A stretch of DNA of 64,000 nt from Bdellovibrionales bacterium (GTDB lineage Bacteria; Bdellovibrionota; Bdellovibrionia; Bdellovibrionales; UBA1609), in NCBI GenBank assembly GCA_965261545.1, contig CBDHDF010000011.1, positions 352,001 to 416,000 of the forward strand, given 5' to 3'. Positions within the stretch are counted from its first letter, which is position 1. Each line of letters opens with the position of its first letter. Of this stretch, positions 3,001 to 12,000 are shown one piece after another. A program made the position numbers.

Positions 3001-6000
3001 TATTGGATGGCTCGATCAAAAGATTGGGTGTAAATTCGCTGATTTCCTTTAAGAACTTTCTTCACACAGGGAGATAAATTATCAATACGGATGTTCGCAC
3101 TCATCCCACCTATCTTTTCAAAAAAAGCATGCACCCCATCGATGAAACACTCATAGACAAGAAAGGGGTAGGCACGAACCCAACAGGTGCCACTACAAGG
3201 CAATGTTCCAAAATGGAGATGAACGATCTGAACACCATCGGCAAATGGTAAAGCAACCTTCTCCTTAAAATCAAACTGAGCCTGTTCTCCAGGATCATAT
3301 CTTTGGCTGAAAAAACGCTCCTTGGGGCGAGAACCAAGAATCTCACAAACTCTTCTCTGAACCGTTCTCTCACTCCCACGATAACCCTCCTCAACTAATA
3401 GCTCATATATTTCACGGGCGGTGTTACTTGGGTTCAACTTCAAAAAGTACTTCACCCGATCCATATATCCATTAAGGGGATCTGGGCGAGTTCTTTTGGA
3501 CCTCGCCTTGTACTTCGGTGGGGTGTTGGACTCACAGTACTTGCGCACCGTCTTACGATTGATCCCTAATTCACGAGATATTTCTGTCTTATTTTTACCA
3601 CTGTGACTCAGGTCACGAATGCGGCCGAAAGTGTATTGACTAATCATAAGATCCTCCTCATTGCTAACCTTTTGAGTTGCAAGAGGGAGGGACTCTGTGA
3701 GCTTAGTATCTATATCAGAAGAAGAGACTTCATTGTCTAGTATTTGAACACTCCCTGAAGATTGGTCACTTTTCATTGGCGACAACCTCCATATTGAAAG
3801 TGGGACATTTTAATTGGCGACGGCTTTAAGGGAAGCCTGTCTTTAGAAAGAAATTCCATGAAAATTGAGGCAAATGTTGGAATCTTGTGGAATTTAAATA
3901 CTTTAGAAAATGGGCACAGCCTAAACAGGCTTTTCTTGACTATATATTTAACCTCATTGAAATCCAGAAACAGTCTACAAATGACAAATATGGAACCTGA
4001 ATAGGCTGTCATGGAAGGACTCTCCAACACGGAGCCCCTTTCCAGGTCGACAAGAACCCAAAAGGAGTTCTTATCAGCTCGGAGCCTTTTTATGAGTAAT
4101 ATCAATTGATTATATGCGTCTCGGTTGACAATGCCAAAAATCACCATAGGTCCTCCTCTGAAAAGTGGCCACTTTTCATTGGCGACGGTGGGGCATTTTA
4201 ATTGTCAGCTAACAACTCTCAAAACTACCTATCATTTGAATAGCATTGGCGATTTCGTTGAGGGCGGGAGAATAGCAAAGATTCTTTGTCACACCCGATA
4301 AAACGTCATAAGCATGAGATAGATACATACGTAAGAAATGAGTTTCCATCTCATTTGGGCAAGGGTACCCACAATAACCCTCCTTTAAAAGATCTTTAGA
4401 GCGAGGAAGTGCTAATTGGTCGCCATCTATGGCATAGATATAAAAACCATGAAACGTTTTTCTCAATGGTTCGTAGTCTGTAATCAGAGATTCAAAGATA
4501 TTTTTAAAAAATAGGTAAGAAATACTTTGACGTATCTTGCTGAGACTGCTTTTGACTGGCATGAGAAGCAGGTCACCAAAATGAGTCCATACCGTCTTAA
4601 GAGCGATTTGGTAGCCTTCGTAATTTGTTCCGGAAATAAGATAGATAATGGTAAAAAAGAAAATTTGAGGATTAAATTTTCGATTCCTTTTTTGTTTTTC
4701 TGGATCGACAAGGTGCTCTGGCTTGAAGGAAGAATCAAGTTTTGGTAGAATAAAATGGTCATCTGTGACGCGAACTCGTCATTTGGGGGCTTTCGAGATC
4801 AATATTGGATTGCATGTGACTTACTCCTTGGTTGAGGGTTGGGTGTAAAATAAAACAAGTCTTATTCTTGTCGATTTATCTAATAATTTCAAGAGATTTT
4901 TCTTAAGGAAACGGCATTGTTCCATACCCTATACTTTAAAAATTGGCAGGAACTCCTCGCCATAATGGCTTATGGGATTAAGCCTATTGCTGCCTCAGAT
5001 GTTTTCGACACATCATGAGCAGCCATTTTTCTCAAAGTGCCCCAAAGAGTTTAACGTATTTGCCCTAAACTAAAGTCTGGACATTCGCCTCTAAATGGCG
5101 AAGACGGGGAGGTTTACCTTATTCGATGCAGTGCAATTCTCACACTGAGATTTGGAGGAATTTCAATGTTTTTTCAAGCTCGGCGGGAATTTCTGGAGCT
5201 CTGACAGAACTGTTGCATTGTGTTGTTTTCGATGTTACACTTTCACCAAATTAAAACTCATACAATGATAGTCATACTCTCGACTTAATAATTCTTGCGA
5301 TAGCTTTCATTCATTGTGACTTTAAAATTCTTAATCTTTGAGGAGACTTCCATGCTTTTAAATTGGATTCGATTTTGTGTCTTTTCGCTGGCAGCCGTCA
5401 CCATGGTGATACAGATCACAACTTCATATGTATATGCCAACGAGCCGGAAAGAAAAGAAGAATTGATCTCTACGATTTCTACAATCATGAGGGGGCAAGA
5501 AAGAGACCCTCGAGCTCTTTCAGAAATGGCCAAAGAACTTGGCCAGTACCGATATTCTGAAGTTAAAGATGCTCTCTTATTTCTTCTCATAAGCCAACTC
5601 AAAGTAGACAGGCCCAACACTTATATTCTCAATGCCGCCCTCACCTCTCTGGGAGCTATGGGCAATACTGAAACCTTGGAAGAATTAAAAGGAATAAACG
5701 AAAACCTTATTGATGGAAAAGTAGATTCACGTTCAAGCATCTATGTCCTCCAAGCTTTTCAAGAGGCAAAACATCAAATGACAAGCCACAATCACATTCT
5801 GCCCTCCCTCTATGGGGAAGCAGATCAAAATGACACCTCTAGAGGAGACAAAGATAACATTGGCAATAGCAATAACAACAAGGATGCAAAGAAGGGGAGG
5901 AAACTTGAAAAAGAAAAGCGAGAGGGCGAATCCTATGGTGATTGGATCAAACGCCTGATGATGAAGGGAGACCCCAATGCTCAGATTCTTGACCGGATCG

Positions 6001-9000: not shown

Positions 9001-12000
9001 AGGCTGGTCATGCCATTGTTGGCCATAGACTCCAAAAAACCGTCGAACTTATCAGCATTCGCTCAGGTAAAGGCATTGGAGGTTTTGTCAGCTTTAAGGC
9101 TACGGAAGGAGGACTTCCAGATCGACTCTATACCATATACGAAGTGGCCACGACTCTTGGAGGAAGACAATCCGAAGTGGAAATAGGAGCCTATTCCCTT
9201 AACCTAGGTTGGTCCTCAGACCTGAAACAAATTCAAGAGATAATTAAAAAATTTACCACTTCCAGTGGAAGGGATAAAAAACTCTTCAACAAAAGTGAGG
9301 CAAAGGGCGAGTCCGAGCAAATCTTCAAACATGCCCAAGAACTTGCAAGCAGTCTATTGATTGAAGAAAGGTCCTCTGTAGAAGACCTACGAGATCTTCT
9401 CATTGGGGAATTCACAATAGACCGGGGTGAATTTAAAGCCTTTATGAGAGATCAAAAGGAAAAGGAGAATCAAAGAAGTATACAACCCATCTCAGAAAAA
9501 AGATCTGAGGCTGTGCTTAAAAAGATCCAACTACTGATAGATTTAGATGCGGCCCTATGGAGTGGCAGCGATGATTTCTTAGCACGTTTTGTGCGTGAAA
9601 AATTGGCTCCCACTCTCCGTGAACTCTCTCAAGCCAAAATAAACAAAGCATCCCTCGAAGAAGACGTCTTACAGGCTGTATCCAAGCTTATTAAACAAGG
9701 AGAAACAGAAACAATCAAAGCCCTCATTACAGAGGTCTTCACTCAAGAGGATTGGAAAAAACATGCCGCATTACTTAGACCTTTGGTTCGGACAGGTCAC
9801 CCTGAAATATTACAAGTTATCAGAGAGAACCTACCTATTCATGAACAATGGTTCAAAGATATGATTCAAAGCAAAGATCCGAAAGCTAAAAAACCATCAC
9901 GTGGCGGAAATAGTGAAAGTGGTGAAAGGGCAGACCTTCAGAGTTCTTTCAAAGCAGGAGTCTTACCATGTGTTTCTGTGATCCCTTCTGGTAATAATTT
10001 GGTGAAGAGCCAATAAAATAAAGGGTGAAAGTTTTGATATGATGAATAAACAGGGAGTGAATAAACATGGGTTGAATCTTGATATGACTCCCATCATCTC
10101 AATGTTTATGTTGTTGTTATCTATCTTCTACTCGATCTCGATGACATGTTTTGTTTCCACGGCATCCACGGAGAGGGGAGAAGTCAGACTTCACCCTTCT
10201 GAGGGTATTACCGCCGATGAGTTGAGAGAGAAGATACGAGAAGTTATTGGCAAAATCCCTGAGTTTGTAGGGATACAAGAGTTGTCCAGAGAGTATGGCT
10301 TGAAGGTTTGGCTTTTTGGTGGAACAGCAGCGTCTTTTGCCCATTACGCTAAAGAGTTTCTTTTGTTTGAAAGAGGTTCAGGGGAATTTTACGCCGAGTA
10401 TTTTCAAGAAAATTCCCAGGGTCACTTGGACTACATGGATATTTTCCGTCCCACCCAGGATATGGATCTGGTGGTGGATGGACCCGTGGACAAAATTCCC
10501 GGTTTTCAAAGAACTCTCCAGGAAAGGTACCCCCATTTTCAGGGCTCCAAGGAAGCATGGGAAATCAGACCCCTTCGTGAGAACTATCAGGACAAAGTCG
10601 CTCTTCTCAACAACCCGGATTTCCTCAATCAAAATACGGACTCCCACTCTGTGGGGCTCATCGCCCTTAGTGGTGATATCAATAGTGACTCCCAAGGTGT
10701 TATCGAAAACTTCGAATTTGCTACAAGCTTGAATCTTGCCGAAAATACCAAACCTGTTAAAGATTCTGATTTTGTCAGACATTCCGATCTTGTTAAGGAC
10801 CTCTTTGACTGGGAATCAAACCACCCTAGTTTTTTGAAGGATGTGCTTGCAAGTCGGCTTCACTTTTACAAAAGTCCTCGCCACAAAACAACTTCCAAGT
10901 ACATGGAGGGCAAGAATCCTGAAATATTCTCTGTCATCAGGTATTTTATTAAACTTTTTCAGCATGAACTCCACCCCTCCCCAGAAGATCGAGAAAAGAT
11001 CTTGGAAATTATCGACCAAACTCAATTTGAAGCCATGGATCACAATGGTTATGTCTTTCGTTGGTTGGAGAAAAATGTTCCTAAACTCTTTCTCCATTCA
11101 AGAAGTGTGGAGCACACCGCCCAAATTTTAGAGGAAACGGGCTTGAAGCAAAAACTTCTTCTTGTGGGAGACCCCAAGCAAGAGGGAAGCCCTGCTTGGT
11201 GGGCCAACAAGGAACCTCTGCGAAGTTTTAAACTTGGTGAAGGGACAGGCAAAACAGCTAAGGAGCTTGGCATCACCAAGGTGGCTCATGACACCAGGGA
11301 TTTTTTCATCTATAGCGTCATCACTAGGTCTCGCAAGGGGGAGCCCAATGTTCTCAAGTCAAGGCAAGGTGTGGTGGGTGAGGCTGCGGGTCATGGAGAG
11401 GGCTTTTACACTATGGCCAATAGAGACCAGGGCTTGGGCCAAGGTTACACTGTTCGCTTCACCCTGGCCACAGAGGCTCGTGATGGCTCAGACTTCATAC
11501 TTGTTGGAGGAGTCAGGCAAGGTCAGCAAAGTCAACAAAGCCAAGGCATACTGGTGGTCTTCAATCGACGAGCCCTTCGAGTCATACCTGAAAGCATTGT
11601 GGTTTCTAATCTCCATGAGTATTTCCATATTTTAAGTCATCTCAAGGAATCAGACAAAGGGCCTTTGGAGAGACTCAAGCGAAAGATGAAATATAAACTC
11701 ACCCATTGGGCCACAGATAAACAGGATATCCAAGCAGCCATCTCCTTACTAAGGACAGAAAACAAAGAACATTTGTGGAAATCTTGGTTTTATCTTCCAC
11801 TATCTGTGAATTATCCACAATTACTAGAGACTTTTGTTAGAAGCGAAGACGGCAAATATAACAAGATTGGAGTGCATGCCTTAGCTCAACCCCACTGGGT
11901 GAAACATCCTGAGTTCATGGAAACCCTGATCGAAAAGGGAGATCAAGATGTCTTACAAGTCTTAGCCGTATTCTCTCTTTCTCAACCCCACTGGGCGAAA

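Follow-up and report, generated by a model that had tools for sequence, protein, structure and literature searches.

A gene at positions 5352..10016 on the forward strand of the window (the whole 64,000-nucleotide stretch of DNA analysed here) encodes, in a relative of the predatory Bdellovibrio bacteria, a 1554-amino acid protein, hereafter P0001, in which a Clp-type unfoldase and an M41 zinc protease are joined in one chain. That P0001 carries both a signal for export and, close to its end, a brief cysteine tag suggests delivery into a different cell, whose proteins it would then degrade. The reading favoured here, to which we assign a probability of roughly 55%, is that P0001 acts as an effector, a protease that reaches the cytoplasm of prey or host and draws on the ATP present there. 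The AAA+ proteases known from bacteria work within the cytoplasm or are turned towards it. No paper describing the Clp-M41 family was found; the literature searches gave nothing or general papers, one M41 term having been misread, which weakens that search.

The open reading frame is preceded by a ribosome-binding site (GAGGAG, 5340..5345) 6 nt 5' of the ATG at 5352, and scans of the locus for promoters and terminators stayed at chance level. All features given below lie on the forward strand. The protein begins with a predicted Sec signal peptide (residues 1–29, 5352..5438), with a putative cut after V-Y-A, called by our own heuristic and by the charge asymmetry of the family. It is followed by a HEAT-like helical cap (residues ~30–150, 5439..5801), for which the HEAT_2 match (E 0.0018) was below the cut-off. 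Pfam, motifs and model place ring 1, a Clp D1-type AAA+ module (Walker A at 263, DE at 346-347, RR at 393-394), at 5964..6839 and ring 2, of Clp D2 type (Walker A at 549, Walker B NE at 627-628, R714, R774), at 6840..7811. Ring 3, also D2-type (Walker A at 889, DE at 962-963, N1024, R1067, R1126, pore loop GHVG), was assigned at 7854..8936 from family conservation. The M41 zinc peptidase domain (8964..9464; H1216, E1217, H1220, D1290) was identified by Pfam, profile and fold match. The chain ends with a helical repeat tail (9477..9911), related by blastp and alignment to repeats of the next gene, and with the tag motif C1540-V-S-V-I (9969..9983), 15 residues before the end. Pfam detected AAA, two stretches each of AAA_2 and ClpB_D2-small, and Peptidase_M41. 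The last match (residues 1209-1326, 35.8 bits) exceeds the cut-off of 29.9, as the genome-wide survey's note had stated, with an E-value of 9.8e-9 instead of the 4e-9 given there. An alignment-based model of residues 205-1372 reached a pLDDT of 87; a single-sequence model of residues 781-1383 (pLDDT 40) was left out of the analysis, and a complex prediction with two copies of ring 3 plus M41 (score 0.00, mark 0.42) gave no verdict. Sequence, motif conservation and fold thus bear out the earlier description of a one-chain unfoldase-protease.

Conservation was counted in 96 complete-looking relatives; a set of 150 aligned rows consisted almost entirely of family members. The catalytic Glu of HExxH (E1217, within HEAGH at 1216-1220) and the downstream Asp ligand (D1290) are present in P0001; among the relatives, HExxH was found in 85/96 and HExxGH in 8/96, the downstream Asp in 87/96 and the zinc ligands in 93/96. 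The profile match of P0001 to FtsH had an E-value of ~1e-32, and residues 1205-1371 of the model superimposed on the FtsH protease domain (2di4_B of 2di4) with Z 17.0 and rmsd 2.6 over 150 aligned residues. As in FtsH, AFG3L2 and YME1, an AAA+ ring is directly followed by M41 in one chain, with HExxH and the downstream Asp. P0001 differs from FtsH in its Clp D2-type motor, above which there are up to two additional rings, and in lacking the two-helix membrane anchor, in place of which there is one short, cleavable-looking leader with an N-in charge pattern. The FtsH model TIGR01241 scored 31.4 bits on P0001, on the peptidase only, against a cut-off of 600.

The ATP-hydrolysis residues of ring 3, including the arginine finger, are kept in 91-96 of the 96 relatives (Walker A Lys 96/96, Walker B Glu 95/96, arginine finger 96/96, sensor 2 96/96); the relatives' clusters are less than 50% identical, and the search profile contained ring 3, which favours its conservation and does not force single residues. 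This indicates that ATP use is under selection. Ring 1 is, judging from the alignment, dispensable within the family: it is absent in 29-30 of the 96 relatives, and its Walker B Glu is retained in 48/96. Ring 2 carries Asn as first Walker B residue in 65/96. The fixed core of the aligned family is ring 3 plus M41, the only invariant parts; the survey's description of rings 1 and 2 as nearly invariant did not hold, with ring 1 missing in about 30 of 96. Likewise, three rings are found in P0001 and, by strict Walker A count, in 53/96 relatives, but not family-wide. A Y/F residue is present in the pore loop of ring 3 in 43/96 relatives and of ring 2 in 30/96, and the P0001 loops, GHVG (ring 3) and GVIS (ring 2), have His and Val at the aromatic position. 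Because these aromatics are poorly kept, strong unfolding is uncertain. Arginine fingers are conserved, and a hexamer and ATP-dependent proteolysis are to be taken as predicted features only. The HEAT-like cap is swapped for unrelated domains in many relatives (the 91 N-terminal regions compared fall into two larger clusters, of 35 and 11 members, and numerous small clusters), and the cap may act as a substrate selector.

The D1-D2 pair resembles that of ClpA, ClpC and ClpB over ~570 aligned residues of the model (Z 28-29; ClpC, 574 residues, Z 29.4, rmsd 5.2). In contrast to these proteins, P0001 includes a metallopeptidase of its own and one additional D2-type ring, and lacks Clp_N and the middle domain; their family models scored 271 and 264 on P0001 against cut-offs of 993 and 1232. 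The distance between Walker A motifs is 273-296 residues in the 53 three-ring members, against a median of 402 in ClpB/C controls. In P0001 the D1-D2 value is 286, like that of middle-domain-free forms, and the ClpB coiled-coil middle domain is not present. The IGF/L loop, the ClpP docking motif of ClpA and ClpC, was found in only 1/96 relatives when the 30 residues that follow sensor 1 were inspected, both for ring 2 and for ring 3. The third ring had been described as a repeat of D2. It is D2-type, but recent duplication of ring 2 as its origin was not supported, ring 3 being closer to ClpB D2 (29%, 95 bits) than to ring 2 (25%, 66 bits). In a quick version of a ring tree, in which one outgroup row is apparently Lon, ring 2 did not form one clade. 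Structural matches to the model also included Plasmodium HSP101 of PTEX (6e10, Z 25.7) and TorsinA (5j1s, Z 18.9). HSP101 and the torsins are exported Clp-type ATPases of eukaryotes; they share with P0001 a Clp-type AAA+ module placed beyond the cytoplasmic membrane, but they work in ATP-supplied compartments and have no peptidase domain.

Export of P0001 is strongly indicated by its predicted Sec leader. By our own heuristic, which is neither SignalP nor a trained predictor and from which all signal-peptide calls derive, P0001 shows the Sec/SPI features of a positive n-region, a short h-region and an AxA cleavage site. A hydrophobic leader was found in 82/96 relatives, its uncharged stretch having a median length of 14 residues. 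In 76 of these 82 the N-side of the leader is positively charged; the charge is higher there than on the C-side in 73, the reverse occurring in none, and strict [AV]xA is found in 39/82 against a downstream mean of 11.9. The heuristic was positive in 74/96 relatives and in 0/113 ClpB/C controls; many of the 22 relatives missed are mis-started or lack the N-terminus. A genome-contig scan returned at least 80 loci with 23-34% identity and ClpB/C-like coverage, which served solely as controls and carry no information on the range of the family. No hydrophobic helix beyond residue 50 was detected in 40 of 40 loci. A lipobox-like motif occurs in 3/96 relatives and a twin-arginine pattern in 0/96, and P0001 has neither. 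Export, which had previously been judged by eye, is now backed by the charge asymmetry, the cleavage-site enrichment and the negative controls.

The cysteine tag, missed by the genome-wide survey's note, is the best clue to the source of ATP. A C-x-x-[LIAF]-[LFY] tag is present near the C-terminus of 92/96 relatives, mostly 5-15 residues from the end, and a Cys falls within the last 30 residues in 92/96 relatives against 3/113 ClpB/C controls. Internal cysteines are nearly absent from the family (0.08%, compared with 0.17% in ClpB/C). The tag can also directly follow the signal peptide. The strict tag was found in 14/67 co-oriented near neighbours, 10/231 far ones and 15/851 background genes. 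Its use as a mark of all secreted proteins of Bdellovibrionota was rejected on the counts in general secretomes (1/84, 0/77, 0/46 and 4/263). MYXO-CTERM (TIGR03901) consists of a Cys motif near the C-terminus of exported proteins, followed by a membrane helix and a basic tail. The Clp-M41 tag resembles it in its conserved near-C-terminal cysteine, in the exported proteins that bear it and in the deltaproteobacteria-like lineage, but lacks the helix and the basic tail and can stand directly behind the signal peptide. For most of the tagged neighbours Pfam gave no match; common secreted peptidases (M28, M13, trypsin) are also among them. Co-oriented neighbours with leader and tag include two PRPP-synthetase-like proteins, a SLOG protein, an ABC1 kinase and nucleotidyltransferase/ADP-ribosyltransferase-like proteins; the PRPP-synthetase-like, ABC1-kinase and nucleotidyltransferase/ADP-ribosyltransferase-like proteins need cytoplasmic substrates. 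Tagged proteins were also seen in genome G072, where the Clp-M41 family was not found.

The next gene (10039..12567) encodes P0002 (842 aa), with a leader, a nucleotidyltransferase-like domain (LFGG.A, QD.D), a probable ADP-ribosyltransferase-like domain (H, G.G.Y), helical repeats and the tag CHLII; the two enzyme labels are presumptive and based on motifs. These motifs are invariant in the alignment, and the P0002 family comprises 226 matches. The catalytic part gave no naming match in Pfam, NCBIfam, PHROG or PDB, and the Atlas matches for P0002 were all below 0.9. A RasGEF identity for two proteins of the family was discarded, the match being weak (E 1e-5) and the proteins dominated by helical repeats. 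Among the aligned proteins, the helical repeat tail occurs only in P0001 and its closest relative; it matched P0002 by blastp with E 2e-5, and the tail of P0003 did so with E 3e-18. The next gene had been regarded as a conserved partner. It is a frequent but not an obligatory neighbour, present as a P0002-type gene in only 8/40 family loci, and the 2330-aa fusion reported earlier is real (genome G015); the two families were found fused in both orders.

The Clp-M41 family was detected in 42/400 other genomes of the phylum, belonging to 13 families, so that the range given before (16/400 genomes, 7 families) was too small. No member was found in 251 + 251 genomes of two other phyla (E 1e-28; best 5 candidates per genome scored; no in-run positive control). 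Clp_N is encoded in 370/401 genomes of the phylum, most carriers included. In the genome studied, G000, PF02861 (Clp_N) had no match anywhere and no other D1-D2 Clp protein was found; ClpA/B/C were absent from G000, G391 and G015, which leaves room for a housekeeping role of the Clp-M41 protein there. The two carriers checked for this, G144 and G172, also encode housekeeping ClpA/B-type genes, and G000 has intact FtsH, ClpX and ClpP.

The periplasm lacks ATP (PMC7053576). Kept ATP residues together with an export signal imply one of two things: ATP is present where it is not expected, or a different cell receives the enzyme. In the delivery reading, P0001 would be moved out of the cytoplasm by Sec, its leader being cut after residue 29, as the leader strongly indicates, and the C-x-x-hydrophobic tag common to the co-located exported enzymes would label it for a further transport step that takes it into prey or a host cell. 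By analogy with Clp and FtsH biochemistry, the stacked ring would then form in an ATP-containing target cytoplasm, where the variable cap would pick substrates, the optional upper rings would add grip and the invariant ring 3 would pass the unfolded polypeptides on to the M41 zinc chamber beneath it. Target proteins would be digested or disabled at the cost of the target's own ATP, and neither ClpP nor a membrane anchor would be required. The patchy spread (42/400), the variable caps and the fusions in two orders fit an effector island. The G000 protein could be directed against a eukaryotic host instead of against bacterial prey. Clustering of the neighbours in 40 loci revealed no delivery machine, and no TLC ATP/ADP translocase was matched in 5 genomes by a search without a positive control match. 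The wider proposal is an undescribed class of Bdellovibrionota effectors, exported by Sec, labelled, at one end or the other of the mature protein, by a portable C-x-x-hydrophobic-hydrophobic tag and delivered into prey or host cytoplasm, where repurposed cytoplasmic machines (Clp-M41 protease, PRPP-synthetase-like, kinase, nucleotidyltransferase, ADP-ribosyltransferase-like) would run on the victim's ATP and nucleotides; we advance it tentatively, at slightly short of even odds.

An exported P0001 might instead stay outside any cytoplasm, in the producer periplasm, the bdelloplast or the feeding junction, and digest prey proteins with ATP leaked from permeabilised prey. This would require only Sec and a known outer-membrane route; secretins are encoded in 5/5 genomes checked, ordinary secreted hydrolases occur among the tagged neighbours, and in B. 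bacteriovorus, which possesses Sec and Tat as well as type I and type II systems, Sec leaders drive secretion (PMC12622784). We consider it unlikely, although worth keeping in mind: it leaves unexplained both the restriction of the tag to a clustered subset of exported proteins and the near absence of internal cysteines. A distinctly improbable reading is that of the motor and processing enzyme of the delivery route itself, comparable to HSP101 in Plasmodium PTEX, which would unfold and clip tagged cargo while prey proteins are not destroyed. The central place of the gene in clusters of tagged genes, its fusion to a cargo-like domain in both orders and the match to PTEX HSP101 (6e10, Z 25.7-27.6) agree with such a motor. 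So does the finding that 11 of 17 other genomes with the P0002 family also carry the Clp-M41 protein, but the P0001 query gave no match in the remaining 6/17, and G072 has tagged proteins without it. Moreover, the Clp-M41 protein bears the tag itself, its cap varies like that of an effector, and a peptidase below the pore would degrade threaded cargo.

Two further explanations seem very improbable to us. A cytoplasmic or cytoplasm-facing, membrane-anchored protease standing in for ClpA/B or FtsH would have a trivial ATP supply and would suit G000, G391 and G015, which lack a Clp_N match or another D1-D2 Clp protein. The charge pattern, however, puts the C-terminal part outside in 73/82 and inside in 0, cleavage motifs are enriched, FtsH, ClpX and ClpP are intact in G000, and most carriers are among the genomes with Clp_N. 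That the rings merely scaffold an ATP-independent exported protease, to which we give the same low standing, accords with the frequent loss or decay of ring 1 and with the variable pore-loop aromatics, but is opposed by ring 3, in which the Walker A Lys, the Walker B Glu, both sensors (1 and 2) and the arginine finger are retained in 95-96 of the 96 relatives.

For Bdellovibrio-like predators, the way in which prey cytoplasm is digested and the cargo of the secretion systems have so far received little experimental support (PMC12428579). The Clp-M41 family supplies a defined enzyme together with a candidate address label, five residues long, that is testable by reporter fusions in B. bacteriovorus. 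Its members, in which a Clp motor has naturally become joined to an FtsH peptidase and the number of rings varies from one to three, are also useful for asking what each ring contributes. The tagged effector class, if true, would represent cytoplasmic machines repurposed to run on the victim's ATP and nucleotides.

One public contig covers the whole P0001 gene without a gap and differs from it by 1 substitution; in another contig from the same sample, 1 base is deleted at 7834, within the gene. Downstream of P0002, a truncated paralogue of that gene (12588..13172; blastp E 3e-11) is broken off before an insertion sequence.

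The Clp-M41 protease P0001 is encoded by a single open frame of 1554 residues (window positions 5352-10016, plus strand), with a GAGGAG site located 6 bases 5' of its start. A contig from the public run X2 spans positions 5166-10319 and shows one substitution and no gaps relative to the window. Run X1, from the same sample, carries a one-base deletion at 7834 that is absent from X2 and is either an error or a minority variant. Since full-length relatives exist, an assembly artefact is unlikely for this gene. The next gene, encoding the 842-aa protein P0002, is long and co-oriented (10039-12567, plus strand), and a truncated paralogue of it is co-located with both (12588-13172, plus strand). 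The rest of the surroundings consists mostly of transposase-like frames, and the copy number of the protease in the source genome is one, in agreement with the genome-wide survey's note, which had described a single copy amid insertion sequences. Throughout the window (1-64000) the long frames mostly resemble transposases or their helper ATPases; a few non-mobile genes are found at 43483-49366 and from 62732 onward.

Pfam assigned AAA to residues 260-380 of P0001, AAA_2 and ClpB_D2-small twice each, and Peptidase_M41 to residues 1209-1326, over the cut-off. Scores for the NCBIfam ClpA, ClpB and FtsH models were far under their cut-offs, and no Clp_N domain, middle domain or ClpP-docking loop was found in the protein by sequence and profile checks. 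A structure model of residues 205-1372, obtained from a 44-sequence alignment, had a pLDDT of 87 but a pTM of 0.53, so that its individual domains can be trusted, but not how they are placed towards one another. For residues 205-820 of the model, alignments of about 570 residues were obtained with ClpC, ClpB and ClpA (the best at Z 29.4 and rmsd 5.2), and residues 1205-1371 aligned with the FtsH protease domain 2di4 over 150 residues (Z 17.0, rmsd 2.6); the protease-family profile matched FtsH peptidase domains at E ~1e-32. P0001 is a variant AAA+ protease, predicted to work like FtsH but with a Clp motor. It belongs to neither family: the NCBIfam score places it outside FtsH, and although it shares Clp-type rings with ClpA and ClpB, its scores and the lack of Clp_N and middle domains place it outside both.

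In order to define the family, residues 781-1383 of P0001 were searched against 401 phylum genomes. Matches at E <=1e-20 were obtained in 55 genomes, 12 of which were dropped, as their only matches ended at query position 354-383, short of the peptidase, like ordinary ClpB/C. The family is therefore present in the source genome and in at least 42 of 400 other phylum genomes, from 13 families, a figure that is a floor because only three candidates were scored per genome. Forty loci were fetched from 38 of these 42 genomes, the remaining four being assigned from coverage only. When 50%-identity representatives were searched with a profile, 150 rows were obtained, nearly all of which cover ring 3 and the peptidase or are family fragments; 96 complete-looking representatives, 11 of them identical to proteins of the fetched loci, were the basis of the counts for conservation, leader and tag. 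Organism labels on four clusters (30 representatives looked up) read Bdellovibrionales, Oligoflexia, Bdellovibrionaceae and Bacteriovorax; the phylum name is based on these and on the labels of the P0002 family given below. No family member turned up among 502 genomes of two other phyla, searched at E 1e-28 with five candidates scored per genome, or in the 26 genomes of the genus g22, and no description of this architecture or of its terminal tag was found in the open literature, to which the search was confined. The protease is real, conserved and undescribed in the literature searched.

Conservation is strongest in ring 3, where the Walker A lysine (96), Walker B glutamate (95), sensor 1 (95), arginine finger (96) and sensor 2 (96) are kept in nearly all 96 representatives. 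In ring 2 the lysine is present in 91 and the glutamate in 89, and Walker B begins with asparagine in 65; ring 1 has a gap in 29-30 and keeps its glutamate in 48. Two loci, L045 and L069, encode ring 3 and the peptidase only. The zinc motif reads HExxH in 85 representatives and HExxGH in eight, and is lost in three. The M41 subfamily with HExxGH comprises L075, P0242, P0251, P0252, P0255-P0257, P0260, P0263 and P0266; P0005, P0007, P0167 and P0215 are full-length relatives with rings kept and the zinc motif lost. Pore-loop aromatics vary across the family (in P0001, ring 3 has His and ring 2 Val at this position). Comparison of 91 N-terminal regions revealed a HEAT-like cap in 35, another common domain in 11 and small groups in the remainder; Pfam gave a single lead among 17 such regions, on the window's own protein. 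In a quick tree, ring 3 formed a separate branch (support 97), and it is nearer to ClpB D2 than to ring 2. Together, the conservation, ring-loss, cap and tree data indicate that the family core consists of a D2-type ring and M41, ahead of which further rings and caps have been added.

The C-terminal end carries a cysteine tag, with the consensus C-x-x-[LIAF]-[LFY] mostly 5-15 residues from the end. A cysteine lies within the last 25 residues at each of the 38 loci whose 3' end is complete (a first regular expression matched 31 of 40 loci), and within the last 30 in 92 of 96 representatives versus 3 of 113 control ClpB/C proteins. As a fairer background, about 22% of random genes carry any cysteine in their last 22 residues; internal cysteine in the protease relatives amounts to 0.08%. 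Co-oriented genes up to two places from the protease are tagged in 14 of 67 cases, versus 10 of 231 farther off and 15 of 851 in the background. The tag is portable, since in L037 the protease ends in NRCADLLSG, which also sits behind the signal peptide encoded by the gene that follows. A general secretion mark was considered and rejected: among leader-bearing proteins the tag occurs in 1/84, 0/77 and 0/46 in stretches taken at random from three relatives and in 4/263 in the source genome, three of these four being the protease and its neighbour family.

Pfam gave no match for 43 of the 56 tagged or leader-plus-cysteine neighbours examined; the others included two PRPP-synthetase-like proteins, a SLOG protein, an ABC1 kinase and an EEP phosphatase, together with several ordinary peptidases and a few proteins included by chance. 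Both PRPP-synthetase-like proteins (L041:16359-17798 and L056:17600-19108, minus strand) have a hydrophobic leader and a terminal cysteine, and in L041 the gene adjoins that of a leader-bearing SLOG protein with the tag behind its leader. The ABC1 atypical kinase domain belongs to a leader-bearing, tagged protein of 1677 aa encoded directly 3' of the protease (L052:3586-8616, minus strand).

P0002 had been taken for a conserved partner, a claim that did not hold in general, as its family occurs at 8 of 40 protease loci. It was found in 17 of 400 other genomes, of which 11 also carry the protease (kin are not independent). Fusions exist in both orders, with the protease first in L047 and the neighbour domain first in P0145. 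The family is multi-copy, with 226 matches; of 119 examined, 91 have a leader and 94 a terminal cysteine, and labelled matches read Bdellovibrionia, Bdellovibrionota or 'Deltaproteobacteria'. P0002 is better regarded as another protein of the tagged class than as a constant partner of the protease. Its invariant motifs are LFGG.A and QD.D, then H and G.G.Y, a series that we liken to a nucleotidyltransferase with an ADP-ribosyltransferase behind it; Atlas enzyme labels for P0002 are leads only (0.78-0.89). Further paralogues in the source genome (C9:7358-10255 and C9:10317-11588) make, with the truncated copy beside P0002, one intact and two truncated, in tandem arrangements amid insertion sequences.

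Export was scored with our own signal-peptide rule, controlled on the 113 ClpB/C proteins. The rule was positive on P0001, for which it predicts cleavage at residue 29, behind VYA. It was also positive on 33 of 40 loci (one via a wrong start; four of the seven misses lack the 5' end) and on 74 of 96 representatives, versus 0 of 113 controls even with extra starts allowed. Among 82 relatives with a hydrophobic leader (median uncharged run 14 residues), 76 have a positive net charge ahead of it and none a negative one, the charge behind it is zero or negative in 72, and the N-terminal side is the more positive in 73, the reverse occurring in none. Strict [AV]xA follows the leader in 39 of the 82, versus 6-23 (mean 11.9) in windows farther downstream; the 96 representatives are all but free of lipobox and twin-arginine patterns. 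Under the positive-inside rule, this charge pattern predicts that the ATPases end outside the cytoplasm.

The sequence data show which domains the protease has, that its catalytic residues are intact, that it bears a tag and a leader of the export type, and that it clusters with other tagged genes. In the proposed mechanism the leader would be cleaved, the protein would assemble as a ring and ATP would drive threading of the substrate; where the protease acts and what the tag does are likewise putative. The periplasm lacks ATP (PMC7053576). As ring 3 is also strictly selected for hydrolysis, the protease must meet ATP after export, and another cell is the simplest source; tagged neighbours needing ATP or nucleotides point to another cell too. 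We favour delivery into the cytoplasm of prey or host, at a probability of about 0.55. A eukaryotic host is possible for the source genome because of its dense insertion sequences. It is somewhat short of an even bet that the protease is the flagship of a new class of tagged effectors.

Action outside any cytoplasm on leaked ATP is unlikely, and a PTEX-like role, in which the protease would help to deliver the other tagged proteins clustered near it, is less likely still. For a cytoplasmic housekeeping protease there is one solid argument, from three genomes, G000 (the source genome, 97% complete), G391 and G015, which carry ClpX and ClpP and in which no ClpA, ClpB or ClpC was found (no Clp_N match and no other D1-D2 protein). 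Clp_N is present in 370 of 401 phylum genomes and FtsH in G000, and with the leader predicted to place the rings outside, this explanation is very improbable. An ATP-independent protease, given the selection on ring 3, has an equally slight chance.

Leader-bearing Clp-type ATPases without the peptidase were also observed: P0259 and P0265, of about 1030 aa, have three Walker A motifs and lack a terminal cysteine, whereas P0008, of 885 aa, has just rings 1 and 2. These proteins may represent exported unfoldases of a sister family. Outside the window, a decayed piece of ring 2 (49% over residues 592-669, no Walker A) lies near the N-terminus of a 1837-aa protein of the source genome (C6:227782-233295, minus strand) that has the look of an autotransporter-type surface protein.
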